64,000 bases of DNA from Gemmatimonadota bacterium (GTDB lineage Bacteria; Gemmatimonadota; Gemmatimonadetes; Gemmatimonadales; GWC2-71-9): contig JBGQIW010000003.1 in assembly GCA_041498715.1 (NCBI GenBank), forward strand, positions 2,395-66,394. Reading direction: 5' to 3'. A program made the translations under genes and the position numbers. This document shows positions 22,406-31,419 of the stretch, in pieces. How positions within the stretch are numbered: the stretch's first letter is position 1; every line of letters begins with the position of its first letter. A model generated the notes under the pieces. That model was not told the DNA's origin. It did not search any database and saw only the letters and a list, made by a program, of their open reading frames with translations.

Positions 22406-22984
22406 ATGACCGACCCTGCACCCGACCGGAGTGCGTTCGAGGCGGAGGTCCTTCCGCAGCTCGACAGCCTCTACCGGCTGGCACTCCGGCTCACGACGGA
22501 CCCGAGCAGGGCGGAAGACCTGGTGCAGGACACGGTGCTCAAGGCCTTCCGCTCCTGGCAGCGCTTCCAGCCCGGAACCAACATCCGCAGCTGGCTGTTC
22601 ACGATCTTGCGGAACACGTTCATCAACGACTACCGCCGCCGGCAGCGGGAGCCGATCGCGATGGACTTAGACGCCGTCGAGCCGCATGCCGTCTCCCGGG
22701 CGGCGCAAGACGAGGACCCGGAGGGGGCGTTCTTCTCGCAGATCGTGGACGCCAAGGTCCTCGGCGCAATCGACGCACTGCCAGAGGAGTTTCGCGAGGT
22801 GCTGGTGCTGAGCGATATCGAGAACATGAGCTACGCGGACATCGCCGAGGTTCTCGGCGTCCCGGTGGGAACGGTCAAGTCGCGCCTGTTCCGCGCGCGC
22901 CGTCAGCTCCAGGGGGTGCTCTACGACCACGCTGTGGAAATGGGCTACATCAGGGCGCGAGATCGTGCGCCGGCCAAGCAGTAG
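22406..22984 (+). CDS. ECF sigma-70 factor (SigH/SigR-like)
   Basis: AEDLVQDT, FQPGTN..SWLFTILRN and GTVKSRLFRAR motifs. Confidence 0.93.
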   Translation: MTDPAPDRSAFEAEVLPQLDSLYRLALRLTTDPSRAEDLVQDTVLKAFRSWQRFQPGTNIRSWLFTILRNTFINDYRRRQREPIAMDLDAVEPHAVSRAAQDEDPEGAFFSQIVDAKVLGAIDALPEEFREVLVLSDIENMSYADIAEVLGVPVGTVKSRLFRARRQLQGVLYDHAVEMGYIRARDRAPAKQ

Positions 22985-23002
22985 CATGCGGGGGACGACC
23001 TG

Positions 23003-23248
23003 ATGGCGGGCGGACCGAACTGCCGCGAGGCATTGGCGCTCCTGCAGGACTACCTCAAGCAGGAGCTGACGCCCGAGCTCGAAGCCAAGATCACGAGCCA
23101 TATCCAGAAGTGCCGGCCGTGCTTCGCCAACCTCCAGTTCGAGCGCGGGTTCCTCGAAATGCTGGAGCGAAAGGCCAAAGGGCAGTGCTGCCCTGATCGG
23201 CTCCGCAACCGCATCCTCGCCGAGCTCCGCGACGCGCCCGACGCCTAG
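23003..23248 (+). CDS. Zinc-binding anti-sigma factor (zf-HC2/ZAS)
   Basis: N-terminal Cys plus HIQKCRPC (HxxxCxxC); adjacent to the ECF sigma. Confidence 0.88.
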   Translation: MAGGPNCREALALLQDYLKQELTPELEAKITSHIQKCRPCFANLQFERGFLEMLERKAKGQCCPDRLRNRILAELRDAPDA

Positions 23249-24110: not shown

Positions 24111-25328
24111 ATGAGTGCCCTTCTGGCCGACGTGCTGATCGTGGGAGCCGGGCCGGCGGGCAGCGCCAGCGCGGCGCTGCTCGCCCGGCGCGGCCTCGAG
24201 GTCGTGGTGATCGACCGGGCCGCGTTCCCCCGGGACAAGGCGTGCTCCGAGTACCTGAGCCCCGAGGGGGTCCGGGTGCTCGAGCGCCTCGGTGTCGTTG
24301 GCGATCTCGAGCGCGCAGGCGCGCGCGCGCTCGCCGGAACAGTCGTGCGGGGCCCGCGAGGCGCGCGACTGCACGGCCTCTTCGCCGAAGCCCGCCCGGT
24401 CCCCGGTCGCGTCACGGGCCTCTCCGTGCCGCGGTCGGTGCTCGACGCCCGGCTGGTCGCTGCCGCCCGCGACGCCGGGGCTCGGGTGCTCGAGCGGACG
24501 GTGCTGGAGGAGCTGCTGTATGAGGATGCCGCGGTGGCAGGCGCCGTCGTCCGCGGACCCGAAGGCCGGCGCCTCATCCGCGCACGGCTCACCATCGGCG
24601 CCGACGGGCTCCGCTCGCTGGTAGCCCGACGCCTCGGCGTGCGGGGGAGCGGTGGTCGTCCTCGGCGGTTCGCATTCGTCGCGCATGTCGAAGGCGTCCC
24701 GGATCTTGCCGACTCGGCCGAGATGCATGTCGCAGCGGACGGGTACGTCGGGCTCAACCAGGTGGGCCAGGACCTTGCCAACGTGGCGCTCGTGGTCCCG
24801 GCGGCGCTGTTAGCCGCGGCCCGTGGCCGCGCGGCCGACTTCTTCTTCGAGCGATTGGAACGGTTCCCCGGCGTGCGAGGCCGCGTGGACCGCAGCCGCA
24901 TCCGCCGCGGCCTGCTCACGACCGGGCCCTTCGCGGCGTGGTCGCGCCGCACGATTGCACCCGGCGCTCTTCTCGTGGGCGATGCGGCCGATTTCTTCGA
25001 CCCGTTCACGGGCGAGGGAATTTGTGCGGCGCTACGCGGGTCGGAGCTGGTAGCAGAGCATGCGGGCGCAGCGCTCGAGACGCCGGGAACTGTGGACGTC
25101 CGGCGGCTCGAGCCGTATGCCGCCGCGCGCCGCCGCGCGTTCGCCGGGAAATGGGCGGTGGAAAGATTGATCGGTTACGCCATGGCGTGGCCCGCGCTCT
25201 TCGACCGCGCCGTCGAGCGGCTCGGGCGGCGGGAGGGCATGGCCCACACCCTCATCGGGGTCACCGGTGACTTGATACCGGCCAGCGCGGTTCTGAACCC
25301 CGTGTTTCTCGCCCGGATGGTCCTGTGA
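24111..25328 (+). CDS. FAD-dependent oxidoreductase (geranylgeranyl reductase/FixC-like family)
   Basis: GAGPAGS, FPRDKACSE, GADG and GDAA.FFDPFTGEGI motifs. Confidence 0.88.
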   Translation: MSALLADVLIVGAGPAGSASAALLARRGLEVVVIDRAAFPRDKACSEYLSPEGVRVLERLGVVGDLERAGARALAGTVVRGPRGARLHGLFAEARPVPGRVTGLSVPRSVLDARLVAAARDAGARVLERTVLEELLYEDAAVAGAVVRGPEGRRLIRARLTIGADGLRSLVARRLGVRGSGGRPRRFAFVAHVEGVPDLADSAEMHVAADGYVGLNQVGQDLANVALVVPAALLAAARGRAADFFFERLERFPGVRGRVDRSRIRRGLLTTGPFAAWSRRTIAPGALLVGDAADFFDPFTGEGICAALRGSELVAEHAGAALETPGTVDVRRLEPYAAARRRAFAGKWAVERLIGYAMAWPALFDRAVERLGRREGMAHTLIGVTGDLIPASAVLNPVFLARMVL

Positions 25329-25807
25329 GCATGCCCGACGTGGACGATGCCCAGTTCCGCCAGCTGCTTGGGCGCTTTGCGACGGGCGTCGTGGTGATCA
25401 CCGTGACCGCCCCCGACGGCCGGCCCCACGGCATGACCGCGAACAGCCTCGCCTCCGTCTCACTGCGGCCGCCGCTGGTCTCGCTTGCCGTCGATCACCT
25501 GGCCGAGCTGCACGGGCTCATCACCCGGCTCGACGTGTTCGTCGCCAACGTCCTCTCGAGCCACCAGGAAGCCCTCTCACGGCGCTTCGCGGACCCGCAC
25601 GACGACCGGTTCGACGGCGTGGGCTATTCCGTGAGCCGGAACGGCGGCATCCTGCTGGACGGAGTCCTCGCCCACATCGAGTGCGTGCGCCACGCCCAGA
25701 TGGAGGCGGGCGACCACACCATCGTGATCGGCCGGGTCGTGGGCGGTGCGACCCGCGACGGCCGGCCGCTCCTGTACTACCGCGGCGGCTACGGGACGCT
25801 GGGGTGA
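25325..25807 (+). CDS. Flavin reductase family protein
   Basis: FATGVVVIT, GMTANS..SVSL.PPL, GDH and PLLYYRG motifs. Confidence 0.92.
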   Translation: MSMPDVDDAQFRQLLGRFATGVVVITVTAPDGRPHGMTANSLASVSLRPPLVSLAVDHLAELHGLITRLDVFVANVLSSHQEALSRRFADPHDDRFDGVGYSVSRNGGILLDGVLAHIECVRHAQMEAGDHTIVIGRVVGGATRDGRPLLYYRGGYGTLG

Positions 25808-26508
25808 CCGACGTGCCACTCGCCACGCGCCGGCTCGGCGCCGAGCTGTTCGACGACGCCTCCGGAAGCCCAGCGGCAGTGGAGTTGTCCCTCCGCAACA
25901 TCGCCCGCGCCAACCGCTGGTTCGGCGGAACGGCTGCGCTGTGCTGGGGCCTGGGACGGGCCCTTCGCGGCGTTCCCGCCGGGACCCGGGTCACGCTGCT
26001 CGACGTCGGCACCGGCCTGGGCGATGTTCCCCGGGCGGCCGCGGCGTGGGGCGCGCGGCACGGTATCCACTTGGCGCCGTTCGGGCTCGAGCGCCACCCG
26101 GTGGCCGCCCGGCTCGCCGCCGCGCGCGGGCTGCCGACCGTGGTCGGCTGCGCCGGCGCCCCTCCCGTGTCCGAGAAGAGCGTGGACGTCGTCTCCGTCT
26201 GCATGGTCGCGCATCACTATGAGCCGGACTCCGTCGTCGAGCTGTTCCGCACCTGCGACCGGCTCGCCCGCCGGGCCGTCGTCGTCGCGGACCTGCTGCG
26301 CTCTCCGGTGGCCGCCGCCGCCTGGTGGTGGGGCTCCCGCGCGCTCGGGTTCGATCCGGTGACGATCGAGGACGGCAGGACGTCCATCCGGCGCGGCTTC
26401 ACGACCGGGGAGCTGACGCGGCTGCTCGTGGCGGCGGGCGTGTCGGCCGTGGTGGCGCGCCGCCCAGGCTGGCGGCTGGTCGCGCTCTGGGCACCAGGCA
26501 CAGCCTGA
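25804..26508 (+). CDS. SAM-dependent methyltransferase domain protein
   Basis: LLDVGTGLGD motif I, DG..SIRRGFT; GTGA overlap start. Confidence 0.82.
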   Translation: MTDVPLATRRLGAELFDDASGSPAAVELSLRNIARANRWFGGTAALCWGLGRALRGVPAGTRVTLLDVGTGLGDVPRAAAAWGARHGIHLAPFGLERHPVAARLAAARGLPTVVGCAGAPPVSEKSVDVVSVCMVAHHYEPDSVVELFRTCDRLARRAVVVADLLRSPVAAAAWWWGSRALGFDPVTIEDGRTSIRRGFTTGELTRLLVAAGVSAVVARRPGWRLVALWAPGTA

Positions 26509-26969
26509 TGCGCACCGAAGACCGGCTCTTCATGCGGGCCCCGGTTGCCCGGGTCTTCCAGGCGGCCGCGAACGTGGAGCGGTGGCCCGAGCTGCTGAGC
26601 CACTATCGGTGGGTACGGATGCTCGAGCGGCGGGGCGACGGTGGAATCGTGGAGATGGCCGCGTGGCGCCCGTTCGGGCCGCTCCGGTATCCCACGTGGT
26701 GGGTGTCGGAAATGTGGGTTGACGCAACCAGGCCCGCCGTGCGCTACCGGCACGTGCGCGGCATCACCGCCGGCATGGACGTCGAATGGCGCCTGGAGCC
26801 GGCTTTCGAAGGGACCGACGTGACGATCGTGCACGAGTGGAGCGGGCCGGGCTGGCCCCTGATCAGCCGGCCCGCGGCCGAGTGGGTGATCGGGCCGGTA
26901 TTCGTTCAGGGAATCGCATCGCGCACGCTCGCGGGAATCCGGCGCGAGGTGGAGCGGGCCGATGCCTGA
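26508..26969 (+). CDS. SRPBCC/START-fold polyketide cyclase/aromatase-like protein
   Basis: RAPVARVF....VERWPELL..Y; WVSEM; GMDVEWRLEP. Confidence 0.8.
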   Translation: MRTEDRLFMRAPVARVFQAAANVERWPELLSHYRWVRMLERRGDGGIVEMAAWRPFGPLRYPTWWVSEMWVDATRPAVRYRHVRGITAGMDVEWRLEPAFEGTDVTIVHEWSGPGWPLISRPAAEWVIGPVFVQGIASRTLAGIRREVERADA

Positions 26970-28206
26970 GCCGCGGCGCGTGGTGGTGACCGGCATCGGC
27001 GCGATCACGCCGATCGGCACCGGTGTCGCGGGGCTCTGGAGCGGGCTGCGCGAGCGTCGCTCGGCGGTGCAGTGCGTCACGCGCTTCGACCCAACTCCAT
27101 TCAAGAGCCGGATCGCCGCCCAGGTGAACGACTTCGTCGCCACCGACCATCTCGAGGAGCGCCGGGCTCGGCGGCTGGACCGCTTCGGCCATTTTACCGT
27201 CGCCGCAGCCCGGCTGGCCCTCGCCTACTCGAGCCTCGACCTCGCCCGCGAGAATCCCGACCTCGTCGGCGCGATGATGGGGACCGCGCTCGGCGGTGTG
27301 GCGTTCGCCGAGCACCAGTACCGGGAATATCTCCAGGGCGGGCCCAGGGCGGTGGATCCAACGCTGGCGCTCACAGTCTTCGCCGGCGCGGCCAGCTGCA
27401 ACGTGGCGATCGAGTTCGGGATCAGCGGCCCGAACTCGACCAACGGCATGAGTTGCGCCTCGGGCACCATCGCCATCGGCGAGGCCTTCCGCACGATCGT
27501 CCGCGGCGAGGCCGACACGATGCTGGCGGGAGCGTCGGAGGCGCCGCTTGCGCCGCTCTGCTTCGGCGCGTTCGCGATCATCCGCGCCATGTCCACCAGG
27601 AACGACGACCCGGGCCGCGCCAGCCGCCCCTTCGACCGGGGGCGTGACGGGTTCGTGATGGGCGAGGGCGCCGCCCTGCTCGTCCTGGAAGAGCGGAGCC
27701 GCGCGCTCGCCCGGGGCGCTCCGGTGTACGCGGAGATCTGTGGTTACGGCCTGAGCAACGACGCGTACCACATGACCGCCCCCCGCCCGGACGGGCGCCA
27801 GGCGGCGCGCGCCATGCAGCTCGCGCTTCGAGAGGCGCGCGTCGCGCCGACGGACATCGGGTACATCAACGCGCACGGCTCCTCCACGCCGCTCAACGAC
27901 CCGACCGAGACGTCCTCCATCAAGCAGGTCTTTGGCGACCACGCGTACCGGGTGCCGCTCAGCGGCACGAAGGGGTACTACGGCCACGCCCTGGGCGCGA
28001 GCGGCGCCATCGAGGCCGCCATCTGCGCGCTGTCCCTCCGCCACGGCTGGCTGCCGCCTACGGTCAACCTGGAGAGTCCCGATCCCGCCTGCGACCTGGA
28101 TTACATCCGGGACGACGGCCGGGACGCGAGACCAGAGTTCATGCTGAGCAATTCGTTCGGGTTCGGGGGGATCAACGCGAGCCTGGTGTTCCGCCGGCCG
28201 GAGTGA
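26962..28206 (+). CDS. Beta-ketoacyl synthase (FabF/KS-alpha family)
   Basis: SCASG, NAHGSST and GHALGA (Cys-His-His intact); RPFD..RDGFVMGEG; SNSFGFGG. Confidence 0.92.
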   Translation: MPEPRRVVVTGIGAITPIGTGVAGLWSGLRERRSAVQCVTRFDPTPFKSRIAAQVNDFVATDHLEERRARRLDRFGHFTVAAARLALAYSSLDLARENPDLVGAMMGTALGGVAFAEHQYREYLQGGPRAVDPTLALTVFAGAASCNVAIEFGISGPNSTNGMSCASGTIAIGEAFRTIVRGEADTMLAGASEAPLAPLCFGAFAIIRAMSTRNDDPGRASRPFDRGRDGFVMGEGAALLVLEERSRALARGAPVYAEICGYGLSNDAYHMTAPRPDGRQAARAMQLALREARVAPTDIGYINAHGSSTPLNDPTETSSIKQVFGDHAYRVPLSGTKGYYGHALGASGAIEAAICALSLRHGWLPPTVNLESPDPACDLDYIRDDGRDARPEFMLSNSFGFGGINASLVFRRPE

Positions 28207-28217
28207 GGCGCCCTCTC

Positions 28218-28328
28218 TCACTTCCTCGCTTTGCGCAGCAAGCTCACGAAATAGAGCAGCAGGATGAGCGCCGCCACGACGTATGCCGCGACGGCGTAGC
28301 CGCCGTTGGCCGGAGGCTCAGCCGGCAT
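28218..28328 (-). CDS. ccmD: CcmD-like small membrane protein (36 aa, not in ORF track)
   Basis: MPAEPPANGGYAVAAYVVAALILLLYFVSLLRKARK: Y..AAY, single TM, basic tail; overlaps the ccmC stop. Confidence 0.75.
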   Translation of the reverse strand: MPAEPPANGGYAVAAYVVAALILLLYFVSLLRKARK

Positions 28329-29031
28329 CGTGAGCCTCCCGGGCCTCGGCCGCGAGGCCGATGCCGTAGCGCAGCGTCACCAAGCCGACGTAGAGGAGGG
28401 TGAACATCAGGGTCGAGACGAGCAGCGTGCGCAGCATCTCCCAGGGCAACGACGGCGCACTCGGCTTGAGGACGATCGGCTGCGGGTGCAGCGTGCGGAA
28501 GAGGTAGACGCTCAGGTGCACGAAGGGCACGAGGACGAGGCCCATGATCCCCACCACGGCGCTGAACCGCGCCCGCTCGCGCCGGTCGTGCAGGGCGCCG
28601 CGGAGCGAGAGATACCCCACGAAGAGGAAGAACAGAAACAGGGTGAGCGTGAGGCGCGCGTCCCAGGTCCACCAGGTGCCCCAGATCGGCTTGGCCCAGA
28701 TCGGCCCGGTCGTGAGCATCACCGCCGCGAACACCACACCCACCTCGGCCGAGGAGGCGGCGAAGCGGTCGAGCCGCGGGTCCTCGAGCCAGAGGTAGAG
28801 CACGCTCACGATCCCGACGAGCGAGAACGCGAGCAACGCGCTCCAGGCCGCCGGCACGTGCAAATAGAAGATCTTCTGCGCCACGCCCTGGCGCGCCTCG
28901 ATCGGAGTGAACGCCGCCGCCAGGACGTACACCCCGGCGATGCCGAGCAGGGCGATCGTGCTGAGGACGGTCCCGCGCCGGATGACGGCGCGGGCGCGAT
29001 CCAGGCCGGGCGGCGGCACGGCGGCGGTCAT
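28318..29031 (-). CDS. ccmC: Heme exporter protein C
   Basis: IFYLHVP, GPIWAKPIWGTWWTWDARLT (WWD) and RTLHPQ motifs. Confidence 0.93.
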   Translation of the reverse strand: MTAAVPPPGLDRARAVIRRGTVLSTIALLGIAGVYVLAAAFTPIEARQGVAQKIFYLHVPAAWSALLAFSLVGIVSVLYLWLEDPRLDRFAASSAEVGVVFAAVMLTTGPIWAKPIWGTWWTWDARLTLTLFLFFLFVGYLSLRGALHDRRERARFSAVVGIMGLVLVPFVHLSVYLFRTLHPQPIVLKPSAPSLPWEMLRTLLVSTLMFTLLYVGLVTLRYGIGLAAEAREAHDAG

Positions 29032-29708
29032 TCGTCCACCACGGAGGAGAAAACCAGGGCGGCCAGCGTCACGAACACGACGTCGTACGCGGCGAGTATT
29101 CTAAGCCAGCCGAGCATCTCGCTCAACGGACGGTCGGCGAGCAGACGCGACGTCACCTGCACCGCTCCGACCAGCGGCGGCACCATGAAGGGCAGGAGCA
29201 GCACCGGGAGGAGCAGCTCCGCGAACCGTGTCCGCACCGCCATTGCTCCGAACACGGTGCCCACCGCCACGAATCCGATCGTGGCGAGCACCGCGGTTCC
29301 CACAATCCCCCAGAGCGAGCGCGACAGGTCCACGTTGAAGAACAGGACGAAAAGCGGCAGCGCCACCGCCTCCACCGCCGCCACGAAGGCGAGATTCGCC
29401 AGCAGTTTGCCGGCGAACAAGGCGCCGCGCGGGATCGGCGCGAGCAGAAGCCCGTCGATCGCGTCGTGCTCGCGCTCGACGGTGAAGGCCCGGTTCATCG
29501 CCACCATTGCCGCAAAGGCGAAGGTCACCCACAGCGCGCTGGGGGCCAGGTCGCCGGCGGACAGAGCGGTCGGATCCCTAGCGAAGTTGAAGATCACCAG
29601 GACCAGCGCAGCGAAGACCGTGGCGGAGAGTAGTGCCGTTTTGCTCCGAAGCTCGGCCCGGATGTCCTTGCCCGCGACCACCAGCGCCAGCCGGAGGCCC
29701 TCAGGCAT
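29028..29708 (-). CDS. ccmB: Heme exporter protein B
   Basis: KD.R.E.RSK, F..E...DGLLLAP and LLPVLLLP motifs. Confidence 0.9.
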   Translation of the reverse strand: MPEGLRLALVVAGKDIRAELRSKTALLSATVFAALVLVIFNFARDPTALSAGDLAPSALWVTFAFAAMVAMNRAFTVEREHDAIDGLLLAPIPRGALFAGKLLANLAFVAAVEAVALPLFVLFFNVDLSRSLWGIVGTAVLATIGFVAVGTVFGAMAVRTRFAELLLPVLLLPFMVPPLVGAVQVTSRLLADRPLSEMLGWLRILAAYDVVFVTLAALVFSSVVDE

Positions 29709-30417
29709 GCACCAGCGCGTGGTAGCGCGGGAGGAACCCCGCCAGCTCCCCCACCCGCGGCTCCTCCAGCACCCAGCGGCCGCCGGCGAGCACGGCAACC
29801 CGGGAAGCGAGCTGCCACGCCTCGTCGAGGTGGTGGGTCACCAGCACCAGGGCGAGGCCGGCCGCGAGCCGTTCGGCCAGGAGCTCCCGGAGCCGCTCGC
29901 CCGCCGGCGCGTCGAGGCCGGTGAAGGGCTCGTCCAGCAGCAGCAACCGCGGCGCGTGCACCAGCGCCCGAGCGATCGAGGCTCGCTGGAGCAGCCCCCG
30001 GCTCAGGTGTCTGGGCCGCTCGTCGCCCCGGCTGTCGAGCCCTACGGCGGCGAGCGCCCGCTCCGCGGCCGCTCCGGGATCGGGAAGGCCGTAGAGGCGC
30101 GCGGCCAGCACGACGTTCTCGCGCACGGTGAGGTCGTCGTAGAGCATCGACTGGTGGGAGACGAAGCCGATCGGGCGGCGAGCGTCAGGGTTCGACGGGC
30201 CAACCCGCGCGCCCAGCACCCAGACCTCGCCGGAACTCGGCCGAGCGAGCCCCGCCAGCACCCTGAGGAGCGTGGTCTTGCCCGCGCCGTTGGCGCCCGC
30301 CACCACCAGCGCTTCACCCGCCCGCACCCGGACGTCGAGACCCCGGAGCACGCGCAGCGCGCCGAACGCACGCTCGAGACCGACTGCGTCGAGAATCGCG
30401 TCGTCAGAGGACGGCAT
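29701..30417 (-). CDS. ccmA: Heme exporter ATP-binding protein
   Basis: GANGAGKT, LSRG and LDEPFTGLD motifs; upstream of ccmBC. Confidence 0.88.
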   Translation of the reverse strand: MPSSDDAILDAVGLERAFGALRVLRGLDVRVRAGEALVVAGANGAGKTTLLRVLAGLARPSSGEVWVLGARVGPSNPDARRPIGFVSHQSMLYDDLTVRENVVLAARLYGLPDPGAAAERALAAVGLDSRGDERPRHLSRGLLQRASIARALVHAPRLLLLDEPFTGLDAPAGERLRELLAERLAAGLALVLVTHHLDEAWQLASRVAVLAGGRWVLEEPRVGELAGFLPRYHALVHA

Positions 30418-30772
30418 CGATGCGTGCGCCGAGCTCGTCGAGACGGAAGGGTTTGAGGATGTAACCGGAGTGGGGAAGATCCAGCACTTTGAGCTGGGGC
30501 TCGATACTCATGTAGGCGGTCGTGATGATGACCGGCAGGTCCGGCTGCGAGTGGCGGATGCGGCGGAGAAGGTCCACCCCGTCGGTGTCCGGGAGCCGCA
30601 TGTCGAGCACGGCCACGTCCGGCGGATGCTCCGCCAACAGAGCGAGCGCCTCGGCGCCGGTGCTGGCGAAGAAGAGATCGTATCGCGGGTTGAAGTGCCG
30701 CTCGTAACTCAGTCGCAGGGCCGGCTCATCCTCCACGAACAGGACGCGCCGGCGCCCCTTGTCGTCAGTCAT
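30404..30772 (-). CDS. Single-domain response regulator (receiver)
   Basis: VLFVEDE, VLDMRLP, TTAY and KPF motifs. Confidence 0.9.
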   Translation of the reverse strand: MTDDKGRRRVLFVEDEPALRLSYERHFNPRYDLFFASTGAEALALLAEHPPDVAVLDMRLPDTDGVDLLRRIRHSQPDLPVIITTAYMSIEPQLKVLDLPHSGYILKPFRLDELGARIDAVL

Positions 30773-30894
30773 GCTTTGGCCTTCGAACGCGGGTCCGGGT
30801 ACCGGACCCAGCGGGGTCACGCAGGGGAAACGAACGGAGGAACACTAATTCGCCGGCAGGACACCGTCCATAGCGCGAGCGGCAGGAGCCGGGG

Positions 30895-31209
30895 TCAGGA
30901 GACCCCGGCCTCCAGCTGGAACAGATCGACGAGCTTGGTGACGACGAGCAGGAACCGGAGCTCGTCGTTGGGATTGCGGAGGACGACCACCTGCCGTCGC
31001 TCGGCGGCGCGTCGCTGGATCAGCATCAGGACGCCGAGTCCCGCGGAGTCGACCTGCCGCGTGCGGCTGAGATCGATGATCAGGTGCCCGGTCCCGTCGG
31101 GCAGCGAGTCCAGCATCTGGACCGCTGCCTTGCGAAACTCGACCCGGGTGTCGAGACCCAGGCGGTCGGGCGCAATAAGTTCGCGAGCTGTGCCGTGCGT
31201 GGTGTTCAT
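30895..31209 (-). CDS. STAS domain protein (anti-sigma factor antagonist)
   Basis: IDLS....DSAGLGVL motif; GGAGG upstream of ATG. Confidence 0.9.
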   Translation of the reverse strand: MNTTHGTARELIAPDRLGLDTRVEFRKAAVQMLDSLPDGTGHLIIDLSRTRQVDSAGLGVLMLIQRRAAERRQVVVLRNPNDELRFLLVVTKLVDLFQLEAGVS

Positions 31210-31258
31210 GAGGCCTCCCACACCCGACAAGGCTCGCGCGCAACTGCGGCTGGCCTAG

Positions 31259-31360
31259 TCCACCTTCGGCACCGAGCTATCTCACCCAATCCAAGACGGG
31301 CGGATGAGACCTCTAGTTTTGCGGCCCCGGATCGCTCCGGGTGTGCTCTTATCGGGCGGA
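31259..31360 (-). ncRNA. GEMM-I (c-di-GMP-I class) riboswitch, A20 variant (candidate c-AMP-GMP sensor)
   Basis: Minus strand UCCGCCCG-AUAAGAGCACAC-CCGGA-GCGA-UCCGG-GGCCGCAAAACUAGAGGUCUCA...UGAGAUAGCUCGGUGCCGAAGGUGGA; P1, P2 (GNRA loop) and P3 pair by hand. Confidence 0.8.
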
Positions 31361-31404
31361 TTTTTTTGTTCCGGGCCACCCTATGCGGCCCGACCACCCC
31401 ATGG

Positions 31405-31419
31405 GCGAGAGCGGTGCCA
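31405..31419 (-). promoter_or_regulatory. Sigma-54 -24/-12 promoter upstream of the riboswitch and STAS gene
   Basis: TGGCAC-CGCTC-TCGC (GG-N10-GC). Confidence 0.55.

Follow-up and report, generated by a model that had tools for sequence, protein, structure and literature searches.

An A20 GEMM-I aptamer in the leader of a STAS gene of Gemmatimonadales: a candidate 3',3'-cGAMP-responsive translational OFF switch

Most of what is established about riboswitch-read cGAMP signalling comes from Geobacter, and a single Ser/Thr residue is used to predict cGAMP cyclases. The window analysed here, a stretch of 64,000 nt from contig JBGQIW010000003.1 (GCA_041498715.1), carries on its minus strand a c-di-GMP-I (GEMM-I) aptamer (31259..31360) with adenine at position 20, in the leader of a gene for a STAS protein. 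The questions raised by this locus are which dinucleotide such an RNA reads in a gemmatimonad, which enzymes might make and remove that dinucleotide, and what its binding would do to the gene behind the aptamer.

When 4227 Rfam families were scanned, RF01051 (c-di-GMP-I) was the sole family to reach its gathering threshold in the window. The match at 31357-31265 on the minus strand scored 46.7 bits (gathering 35, E 5.7e-6; cmscan), and it was the only RF01051 match in the whole genome, which is 80% complete. The features of membership are present, namely the P1/P2/P3 junction, the G14-C93 pair (31353 and 31268), A47 (31320), C92 (31269) and a GNRA loop (GCGA) on P2. The preliminary description had folded this leader by hand into the GEMM-I architecture, and the Rfam match agrees with that fold in P1, P2, the GCAAA junction and P3. 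The adenine that it had assigned to the equivalent of position 20 was likewise borne out; it stands at 31347, directly before G21 and C22, and the Rfam alignment gives A, not G. G20, the mark of c-di-GMP-selective RF01051 members, is absent, while the mark of GEMM-Ib, A20 with C92 kept, is present. Pair counts in 13 hand-picked homologues showed 99% pairing in P1, with changes on both sides at three of the eight pairs, and the pocket bases were all invariant across 64 switch-bearing genomes. As judged from its sequence, the aptamer is a real RF01051 member carrying the GEMM-Ib mark. The lineage had been called unexpected, and this also held: the host belongs to Gemmatimonadales, and records of close STAS protein relatives bear the titles Gemmatimonadales or Gemmatimonadota.

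At G21-C46 the pocket is identical to the Rfam consensus; this pair was found in 13/13 homologues, and the C15-G40 pair that closes the foot of P2 in Gs1761, a selective member, is absent. A part in selectivity was reportedly given to this Gs1761-type pair in the 2015 work of Ren. Passages of PMC6274999 describe P2 of Gs1761 as opening with C15-G40, and passages of PMC9262584 report shifts in selectivity upon single changes low in P2. According to sections of PMC6140456, the adenine of cGAMP pairs with A20, and protonated A20 also binds c-di-GMP tightly. The affinities given there are 53 nM for c-di-GMP and 120 nM for cGAMP with Vc2 G20A, 30 nM for c-di-GMP versus 463 nM for cGAMP with Cbe 1-2, an A20 RNA that favours c-di-GMP, and 0.53 nM for cGAMP and 660 nM for c-di-GMP with Gs1761 by probing (290 and 710 nM, respectively, by ITC). 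Since the pocket of the window aptamer keeps G21-C46 and some A20 RNAs bind both ligands, the ligand is not fixed by A20 alone; the RNA, taken by itself, points to a pocket in which cGAMP binding would be permitted and selectivity is not implied. Compared with the Geobacter GEMM-Ib aptamers (Gs1761, Gm0970 and pilM), the window aptamer shares the three-stem fold, A20, C92 and A47, a Hypr-like GGDEF protein and an RxxQ HD-GYP protein are co-present, and cytochrome c genes lie nearby, but it has G21-C46 in place of C15-G40 at the base of P2, its target is a STAS gene and its phylum is Gemmatimonadota. Position 20 is the main point at which the pocket of the window aptamer, like that of Vc2 G20A, departs from the c-di-GMP-I consensus; unlike Vc2 G20A, the aptamer occurs in a family that carries writer- and eraser-type enzyme changes, and its ligand is predicted from sequence.

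We then compared position 20 across relatives, for which the host family is labelled f1, its sister family f2 and a further family f3, with G000 for the own genome and other G numbers for relatives. RF01051 was found in 45 of 61 relatives (f1 34/36, f2 9/12, f3 1/12), at 129 places. Position 20, scored by script at all 129 places with three calls revised by eye, was A in 61, G in 63, U in 3 and unclear in 2 aptamers; f1 had 54 A, 47 G and 3 U, and f2 had 16 G and 7 A among its 24 aptamers. A pattern for the sub-family of the window aptamer that left positions 19-20 free matched at 84 places; these were spread over 64 of the 301 genomes of the order, all in f1, and every one of the 84 carried A20. 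Because these copies share descent, conservation is shown by this count, and repeated origin is not. Aptamers with G20 and with A20 were both found in 19 of the 45 matched genomes, and three genomes had them in tandem, G20 before A20; such coexistence is expected if cells tell two ligands apart. The tandem pairs (G013:C14 15498-15786, L016; G009:C258 14130-14420, L014; G011:C46 10584-10928, L018), with aptamers approximately 200-260 nt apart, precede lipoprotein-like genes and may form a two-ligand logic gate.

Several further aptamers were recorded in the same census. Another A20 subtype, whose junction reads GCAGA (L018, L028, L029, L030, L254, L255, L256 and others), lay mostly upstream of lipoprotein-like ORFs beginning with a conserved short leader, and was present also in the f2 genomes G039 and G043. 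The three U20 matches were all from G010 (C308, C62 and C384; L285, L298 and L299) and may be decayed copies. By eye, A20 aptamers were seen upstream of type IV prepilin-like gene starts in G011:C130 (L259) and G035:C107 (L286), and G20 aptamers precede similar prepilin-like genes in G018, G023, G034 and G013. In the f2 genome G037 (C1 915652-916125; L022, L311), an A20 aptamer and a sigma54-type motif lie upstream of a distant STAS gene (32% identity); despite this aptamer, no non-acidic GGDEF was found in G037 with a relaxed pattern.

Upstream of the window aptamer, the minus strand carries a GG-N10-GC motif (31405..31419), which we take to be the sigma54 consensus and from which the leader is predicted to start near 31393. 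Among the 59 homologous leaders for which sufficient upstream sequence was available, 49 have the motif, in 46 cases at 53-61 nt from A20, and in the uncorrected census it accompanied 29/61 A20 aptamers versus 1/61 G20 aptamers. The transcript would likely be initiated at this sigma54-type promoter. The rpoN gene was not found in the own genome (80% complete) and was present in 5/5 relatives, and a sigma70 scan called no promoter. Ahead of the aptamer lies a 5' hairpin (31373..31391, minus strand), recognized from sequence and fold, with similar hairpins in relatives. Short RNA contigs cover the leader (31205-31359 and 31193-31375); they come from four runs of one study that contained only 10-15% of the sequence words, and as DNA upstream of the predicted start is covered too, they are no proof of transcription.

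Between the aptamer and the gene, fold and homologues indicate an anti-P1 strand (31222..31231, minus strand) just ahead of the Shine-Dalgarno sequence (SD, 31219-31214), which pairs with P1 on its 5' side and with J1/2 in a predicted ligand-free helix of 10 pairs (93.8% of cells paired in the 13 hand-picked homologues). Alternatively, the 3' half of the anti-P1 strand can pair with codons 3-5 in a predicted hairpin enclosing the ribosome-binding site (RBS) (31197..31223), in which 31223-31218 pair with 31202-31197 around the SD and ATG 31209; pairing was 92.3%, with a both-side change at one of six pairs. In 21 of the 49 leaders, the RBS hairpin outdid 90% of the windows downstream, and it recurs before unrelated lipoprotein-like genes. 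No terminator-like site was detected on the minus strand of the leader. In a test that enforces the helices compared, for which 62 leaders were taken, the 49 with an anti-P1 strand used and 13 dropped, 45 of the 49 showed a higher cost of opening the RBS once P1 was formed (mean 13.9 versus 8.5 kcal/mol); for the own leader, the cost was 12.9 with P1 formed versus 6.4 kcal/mol, the two states being 1.1 apart. Plain RBS accessibility, averaged from SD to AUG, gave no direction in 54 long leaders, being lower with P1 in 21 of them, with means of 0.54 with P1 enforced and 0.48 otherwise. In four short variants (L210, L086, L087 and L090), the SD itself forms the 3' strand of P1, so that these can only be OFF.

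From the opening cost, the conserved helices and the short variants, we infer with moderate confidence that the leader is a translational OFF switch. With no ligand bound, the 5' strand of P1 would pair with the anti-P1 strand and the RBS hairpin would be kept open; upon ligand binding, P1 would be locked, the anti-P1 strand freed and the hairpin shut over the SD and AUG. As far as passages of PMC9262584 go, Vc2 is a translational OFF switch, like the prediction for the window leader, whereas Geobacter pilM is a transcriptional ON switch, and the window leader lacks an intrinsic terminator.

The aptamer indeed lies in the minus-strand leader of the STAS gene, as had been described, and ATG 31209, preceded by the SD, is the most likely start of the gene, rather than the TTG 31230 of the ORF list. 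It encodes a protein of 104 aa (30895..31209; Pfam STAS_2, E 3.9e-12) with a single domain and a D-S-x-G motif, invariant in 44/44 aligned rows. The characteristic feature of SpoIIAA and RsbV, a single STAS domain with a conserved phospho-serine, is present; unlike SpoIIAA and RsbV, the protein scored below the TIGR00377 cut-off (30.3 bits against 53.45), has a short C-terminus, and is encoded beside ccm genes and apart from a kinase module. Such a module was found on G000:C65, where an HATPase_c_2 kinase gene stands beside another STAS gene and an ORF that looks phosphatase-like by eye. Given the DSxG serine and this kinase module elsewhere, a partner-switching role of the window protein is plausible, and it would likely act as a second antagonist for the G000:C65 kinase.

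Behind the STAS gene, all on the minus strand, follow genes for a stand-alone receiver (REC) protein (30404..30772, PF00072), a ccmA-like ABC ATPase (29701..30417, PF00005), ccmB (29028..29708, PF03379), ccmC (28318..29031, PF01578) and a ccmD-like single-membrane ORF of 36 aa (28218..28328), named by position and size of its translation. A conserved intergenic motif (30842..30872, minus strand), which recurs at 24 of the 51 switch loci with REC, may be an internal promoter for REC-ccm; the sigma70 scan called no promoter there. Wherever the DNA behind a switch locus reached far enough, which was so at 57 loci (some genomes counted twice), ccmA lay within 1.3 kb after STAS. The same synteny was found in 6/6 switch-less loci with enough DNA, and hence the STAS-ccmA order is independent of the switch. 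A co-fold of STAS with CcmA scored 0.12 against a mark of 0.32, which is uninformative either way. The results do not support direct control by the switch of the ccm genes behind it, and a Geobacter-like link of cGAMP to cytochrome c maturation by direct control is tempting and equally not supported. On the opposite strand, 24111-28206 holds ORFs for a flavoprotein, flavin reductase-like, methyltransferase-like and cyclase-like proteins and a ketoacyl synthase (the Pfam-scanned one), possibly a small polyketide or lipid pathway, and 22406-23248 (plus strand) holds an ECF sigma factor gene and, behind it, an 81-aa ORF whose HxxxCxxC motif is zinc anti-sigma-like.

Next, we searched for a source of cGAMP. 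The own genome encodes eight GGDEF domains, seven of which have Asp348 (GacA numbering) and are canonical, so that c-di-GMP would be available to a bispecific RNA. The preliminary description had made a cGAMP synthase in the genome a check on its proposal; taken literally, that check failed, since none of the eight domains in this 80%-complete genome has the Ser/Thr348 of a textbook Hypr enzyme and a DncV/CD-NTase source was rejected for want of any PF18144 (SMODS) match, while a looser form of it held, with an Asn348/Tyr304 GGDEF protein, Ser348 orthologues in relatives and an RxxQ HD-GYP protein. Textbook Ser/Thr348 Hypr was not found in the host genus either. The candidate writer (G000:C8, L140:1105-2796) combines 4Fe-4S, Fe-hydrogenase-like, FeS and GGDEF domains, and when its GGDEF domain is aligned to GacA (6D9M), Asn falls on Ser348, the base-reading position, and Tyr on Tyr304, the cross-dimer position. 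Sections of PMC6456294 name Ser348, GGDEF rather than GGEEF, and non-Arg304 as Hypr marks, and R304Y with D348S as steps from a diguanylate cyclase toward Hypr; G000:C8 has the GGDEF motif and lacks Arg at 304, and Ser/Thr348 is absent. By these residues the protein resembles Hypr enzymes and is not classed as one, as it fails the Ser/Thr348 test. Through its amide, Asn348 might read both adenine and guanine. We found no published test of an Asn348 GGDEF enzyme, and the supplements of Hallberg 2016 may list Asn variants.

The relatives of this protein follow the same trend. In 17 of 18 genomes of the genus, there was a single non-acidic GGDEF protein, always the Asn348 Fe-S protein, and orthologues with Ser348 occur in G123, G110 and G286 at 53-57% identity across 562-570 aa (whole length). 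When 28 hand-picked Fe-S GGDEF proteins were placed in a quick tree, the 16 Asn/Ser348 rows with Tyr/Phe304, the three Ser348 orthologues among them, formed one clade (SH-aLRT 100), outside which fell 11 Asp rows and one His304/Asn348 row. Residue 304 was Tyr/Phe in 33 of 36 Asn348 domains, Tyr/His in 36 of 38 Ser348 domains and Arg in 112 of 131 Asp348 domains, counts that were drawn from a biased sample of related GGDEF domains. Compared with known Hypr synthases (GacA/GSU1658, 6D9M; Bd0367; GacB), G000:C8 is alike in its non-Asp348, Tyr304 and GGDEF, and in the Ser348 of three orthologues, but differs in having Asn348 in the own genome and in most of the family, and in carrying 4Fe-4S, Fe-hydrogenase-like and FeS domains where those enzymes have REC-GAF or REC N-terminally. 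G000:C8 is proposed to be a Hypr-like cGAMP writer, redox-gated via its Fe-S clusters. Directly after its gene lies a 257-aa ORF (L140:316-1089) with no Pfam match. A REC-like/GAF/GGDEF protein of the own genome (G000:C66 3941-4405, L009) has a decayed substrate loop with GGDEF and RxxD intact, and is likely a c-di-GMP receptor.

The strict Ser/Thr348 pattern was detected in 52 of 301 genomes of the order (f1 36/136, f2 4/137, f3 12/27), mostly in a MASE1-GGDEF family. Of 30 loci for Ser348 membrane GGDEF proteins, 29 look like one family, and the one member that was scanned is a MASE1-GGDEF protein. These proteins (L099-L127, L150-L153) have Ser348, GGDEF and Tyr/His304 and occur in genomes of f1 and f3 as well as in a few of f2. 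By its residues, this family would be a stronger Hypr candidate than the Asn348 enzyme; it was not found in the host genus.

For the removal of cGAMP, the own genome offers six HD_5 proteins, four with RxxR and two with RxxQ. Excerpts of 10.1101/600031 give Rxx(Q/N) in 4.69% of HD-GYPs and report cleavage of cGAMP by five of six assayed Rxx(Q/N) enzymes, three of them selective and two cleaving both dinucleotides; the position was confirmed in passages of 10.1101/2021.11.05.467447. The cGAMP-type mark, Rxx(Q/N) replacing Rxx(K/R) with HD and GYP intact, is present in a REC-HD-GYP protein (G000:C11; HD_5 over the cut-off), whose RPYQ aligns with the RPYK of PmGH (4MCW; R314/K317 position). In these respects G000:C11 is like the cGAMP HD-GYPs PmxA, Bd2325 and Gmet_3476, from which it differs in its REC-HD-GYP layout, and it may serve as the cGAMP eraser. 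The second RxxQ protein (G000:C15 23850-24341, L231) has a divergent HD-GYP signature and may be a receptor, not an enzyme.

Across families, the Asn/Ser/Thr348 GGDEF pattern was found in 87/96 f1, 0/38 f2 and 2/3 f3 genomes and in 7/63 from other families of the phylum, and the RxxQ HD-GYP pattern in 122/136 f1, 5/137 f2 and 0/27 f3 genomes, including 62 of the 64 switch-bearing ones. The contrast between f1 and f2 amounts to approximately one evolutionary event, as counts at family level rest on shared descent. Within f1, no positive link between switch and enzyme was observed, with Asn/Ser GGDEF in 37 of 44 switch-bearing genomes versus 51 of 53 others. Four genomes with A20 aptamers had no non-acidic GGDEF by the relaxed pattern (G037, G039, G064 and G157), of which G037 (100% complete, 7 contigs) and G039 (99%, 4 contigs) belong to f2. 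A recheck of 20 genomes for the Fe-S GGDEF protein yielded a full-length orthologue in 11 and fragments at contig ends in two (G270 and G220); by eye, no orthologue was seen in the f1 genomes G021, G064, G157, G185, G215, G131 and G230 or in the f2 genome G037. In the long-contig genome G255 (C1 92966-94635; L180, L181), the gene lies in three frames, owing to a sequencing error or a broken gene.

On this evidence, we assign a probability of roughly 0.55 to the reading that the A20 leader responds to 3',3'-cGAMP, probably with some cross-binding of c-di-GMP, and shuts off translation of the STAS gene. The joint extension of this reading to all of f1 is more tentative and falls somewhat short of an even chance: a family-wide cGAMP circuit would comprise an Asn-type Hypr cyclase, an RxxQ phosphodiesterase and translation-repressing A20 switches, with Fe-S redox sensing, sigma54 promoters and tandem G20 and A20 aptamers that compare both dinucleotides. 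A competing account, possible and still rather doubtful, is that this riboswitch, like Vc2 G20A or Cbe 1-2, is bispecific or a detuned c-di-GMP switch, working with c-di-GMP from the canonical cyclases. A20 would then lower c-di-GMP affinity to a level that suits translational switching at equilibrium, and the Asn348 protein would be an ordinary, weak or dead cyclase. The G21-C46 pocket, the tight binding of c-di-GMP by protonated A20, and the seven Asp348 domains and four RxxR HD-GYPs of the own genome all fit this account, as do the A20 aptamers of near-complete genomes without a non-acidic GGDEF, the presence of A20 in f2, where Asn/Ser enzymes are absent from the 38 genomes, and the lack of co-occurrence inside f1. 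What it leaves unexplained is that the changes to Asn/Ser348 with Tyr/Phe304 and to RxxQ both swept f1, that some orthologues have a true Ser348, and that G20 and A20 aptamers stand in tandem.

The direction and reach of the output may also differ from the reading that we prefer. Translation could be turned ON, with the ligand-free helix reaching the SD, or Rho-dependent polarity could also set REC-ccmABCD and thereby couple the signal to the maturation of cytochrome c, as in Geobacter; in a variant, the STAS protein would be an MlaB-like partner of CcmA. The slightly higher accessibility of the RBS with P1 and the constant presence of ccmA after STAS at switch loci speak for such outputs, and the MlaB-like variant draws on a weak mlaB_1 match of the STAS protein (E 1.6e-4) and on the description of MlaB, in a portion of PMC7367683, as a STAS protein binding an ABC ATPase. 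Nevertheless, we consider these outputs, the variant included, unlikely, given the SD within P1 in the short variants, the RBS hairpin recurring ahead of unrelated lipoprotein-like genes, the intergenic motif that may supply REC-ccm with its own promoter and the synteny kept in switch-less loci. A decayed or ligand-blind remnant retained as a structured leader would agree with a score that is low for the family (best relatives reach 82 bits) and with at least eight STAS orthologue loci that lack an aptamer, but the invariant pocket, the covariation of P1 and the reuse of aptamer and platform before other genes make it very improbable.

Judged by title and abstract, we found no account of a gemmatimonad riboswitch or cGAMP system in the literature, nor an Asn-type Hypr enzyme or a cGAMP switch on a STAS gene; the tables and supplements of the primary GEMM-Ib and Hypr papers (Hallberg 2016, Kellenberger 2015, Nelson 2015 and Ren 2015) may list such variants or this lineage. 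A text search for 'Gemmatimon' gave no match in the available portions of PMC6456294, 10.1101/600031 and 10.1101/2021.11.05.467447. The three parts, namely leader, writer and eraser, are small and could be tested in E. coli with existing biosensors, as described in parts of 10.1101/600031 and 10.64898/2026.01.30.702909, and the natural Asn348 and Ser348 orthologues provide a ready comparison. Should the RNA prove bispecific, it would still allow a clean test of the determinants of GEMM-I selectivity besides A20. If the Asn348/Tyr304 enzyme makes cGAMP, the Ser/Thr rule misses a class of synthases, and a common uncultured lineage would have a redox-coupled cGAMP system. If the proposed circuit is true, the Hypr rule would widen from Ser/Thr to Asn, and cGAMP signalling would gain a new phylum and an OFF logic.
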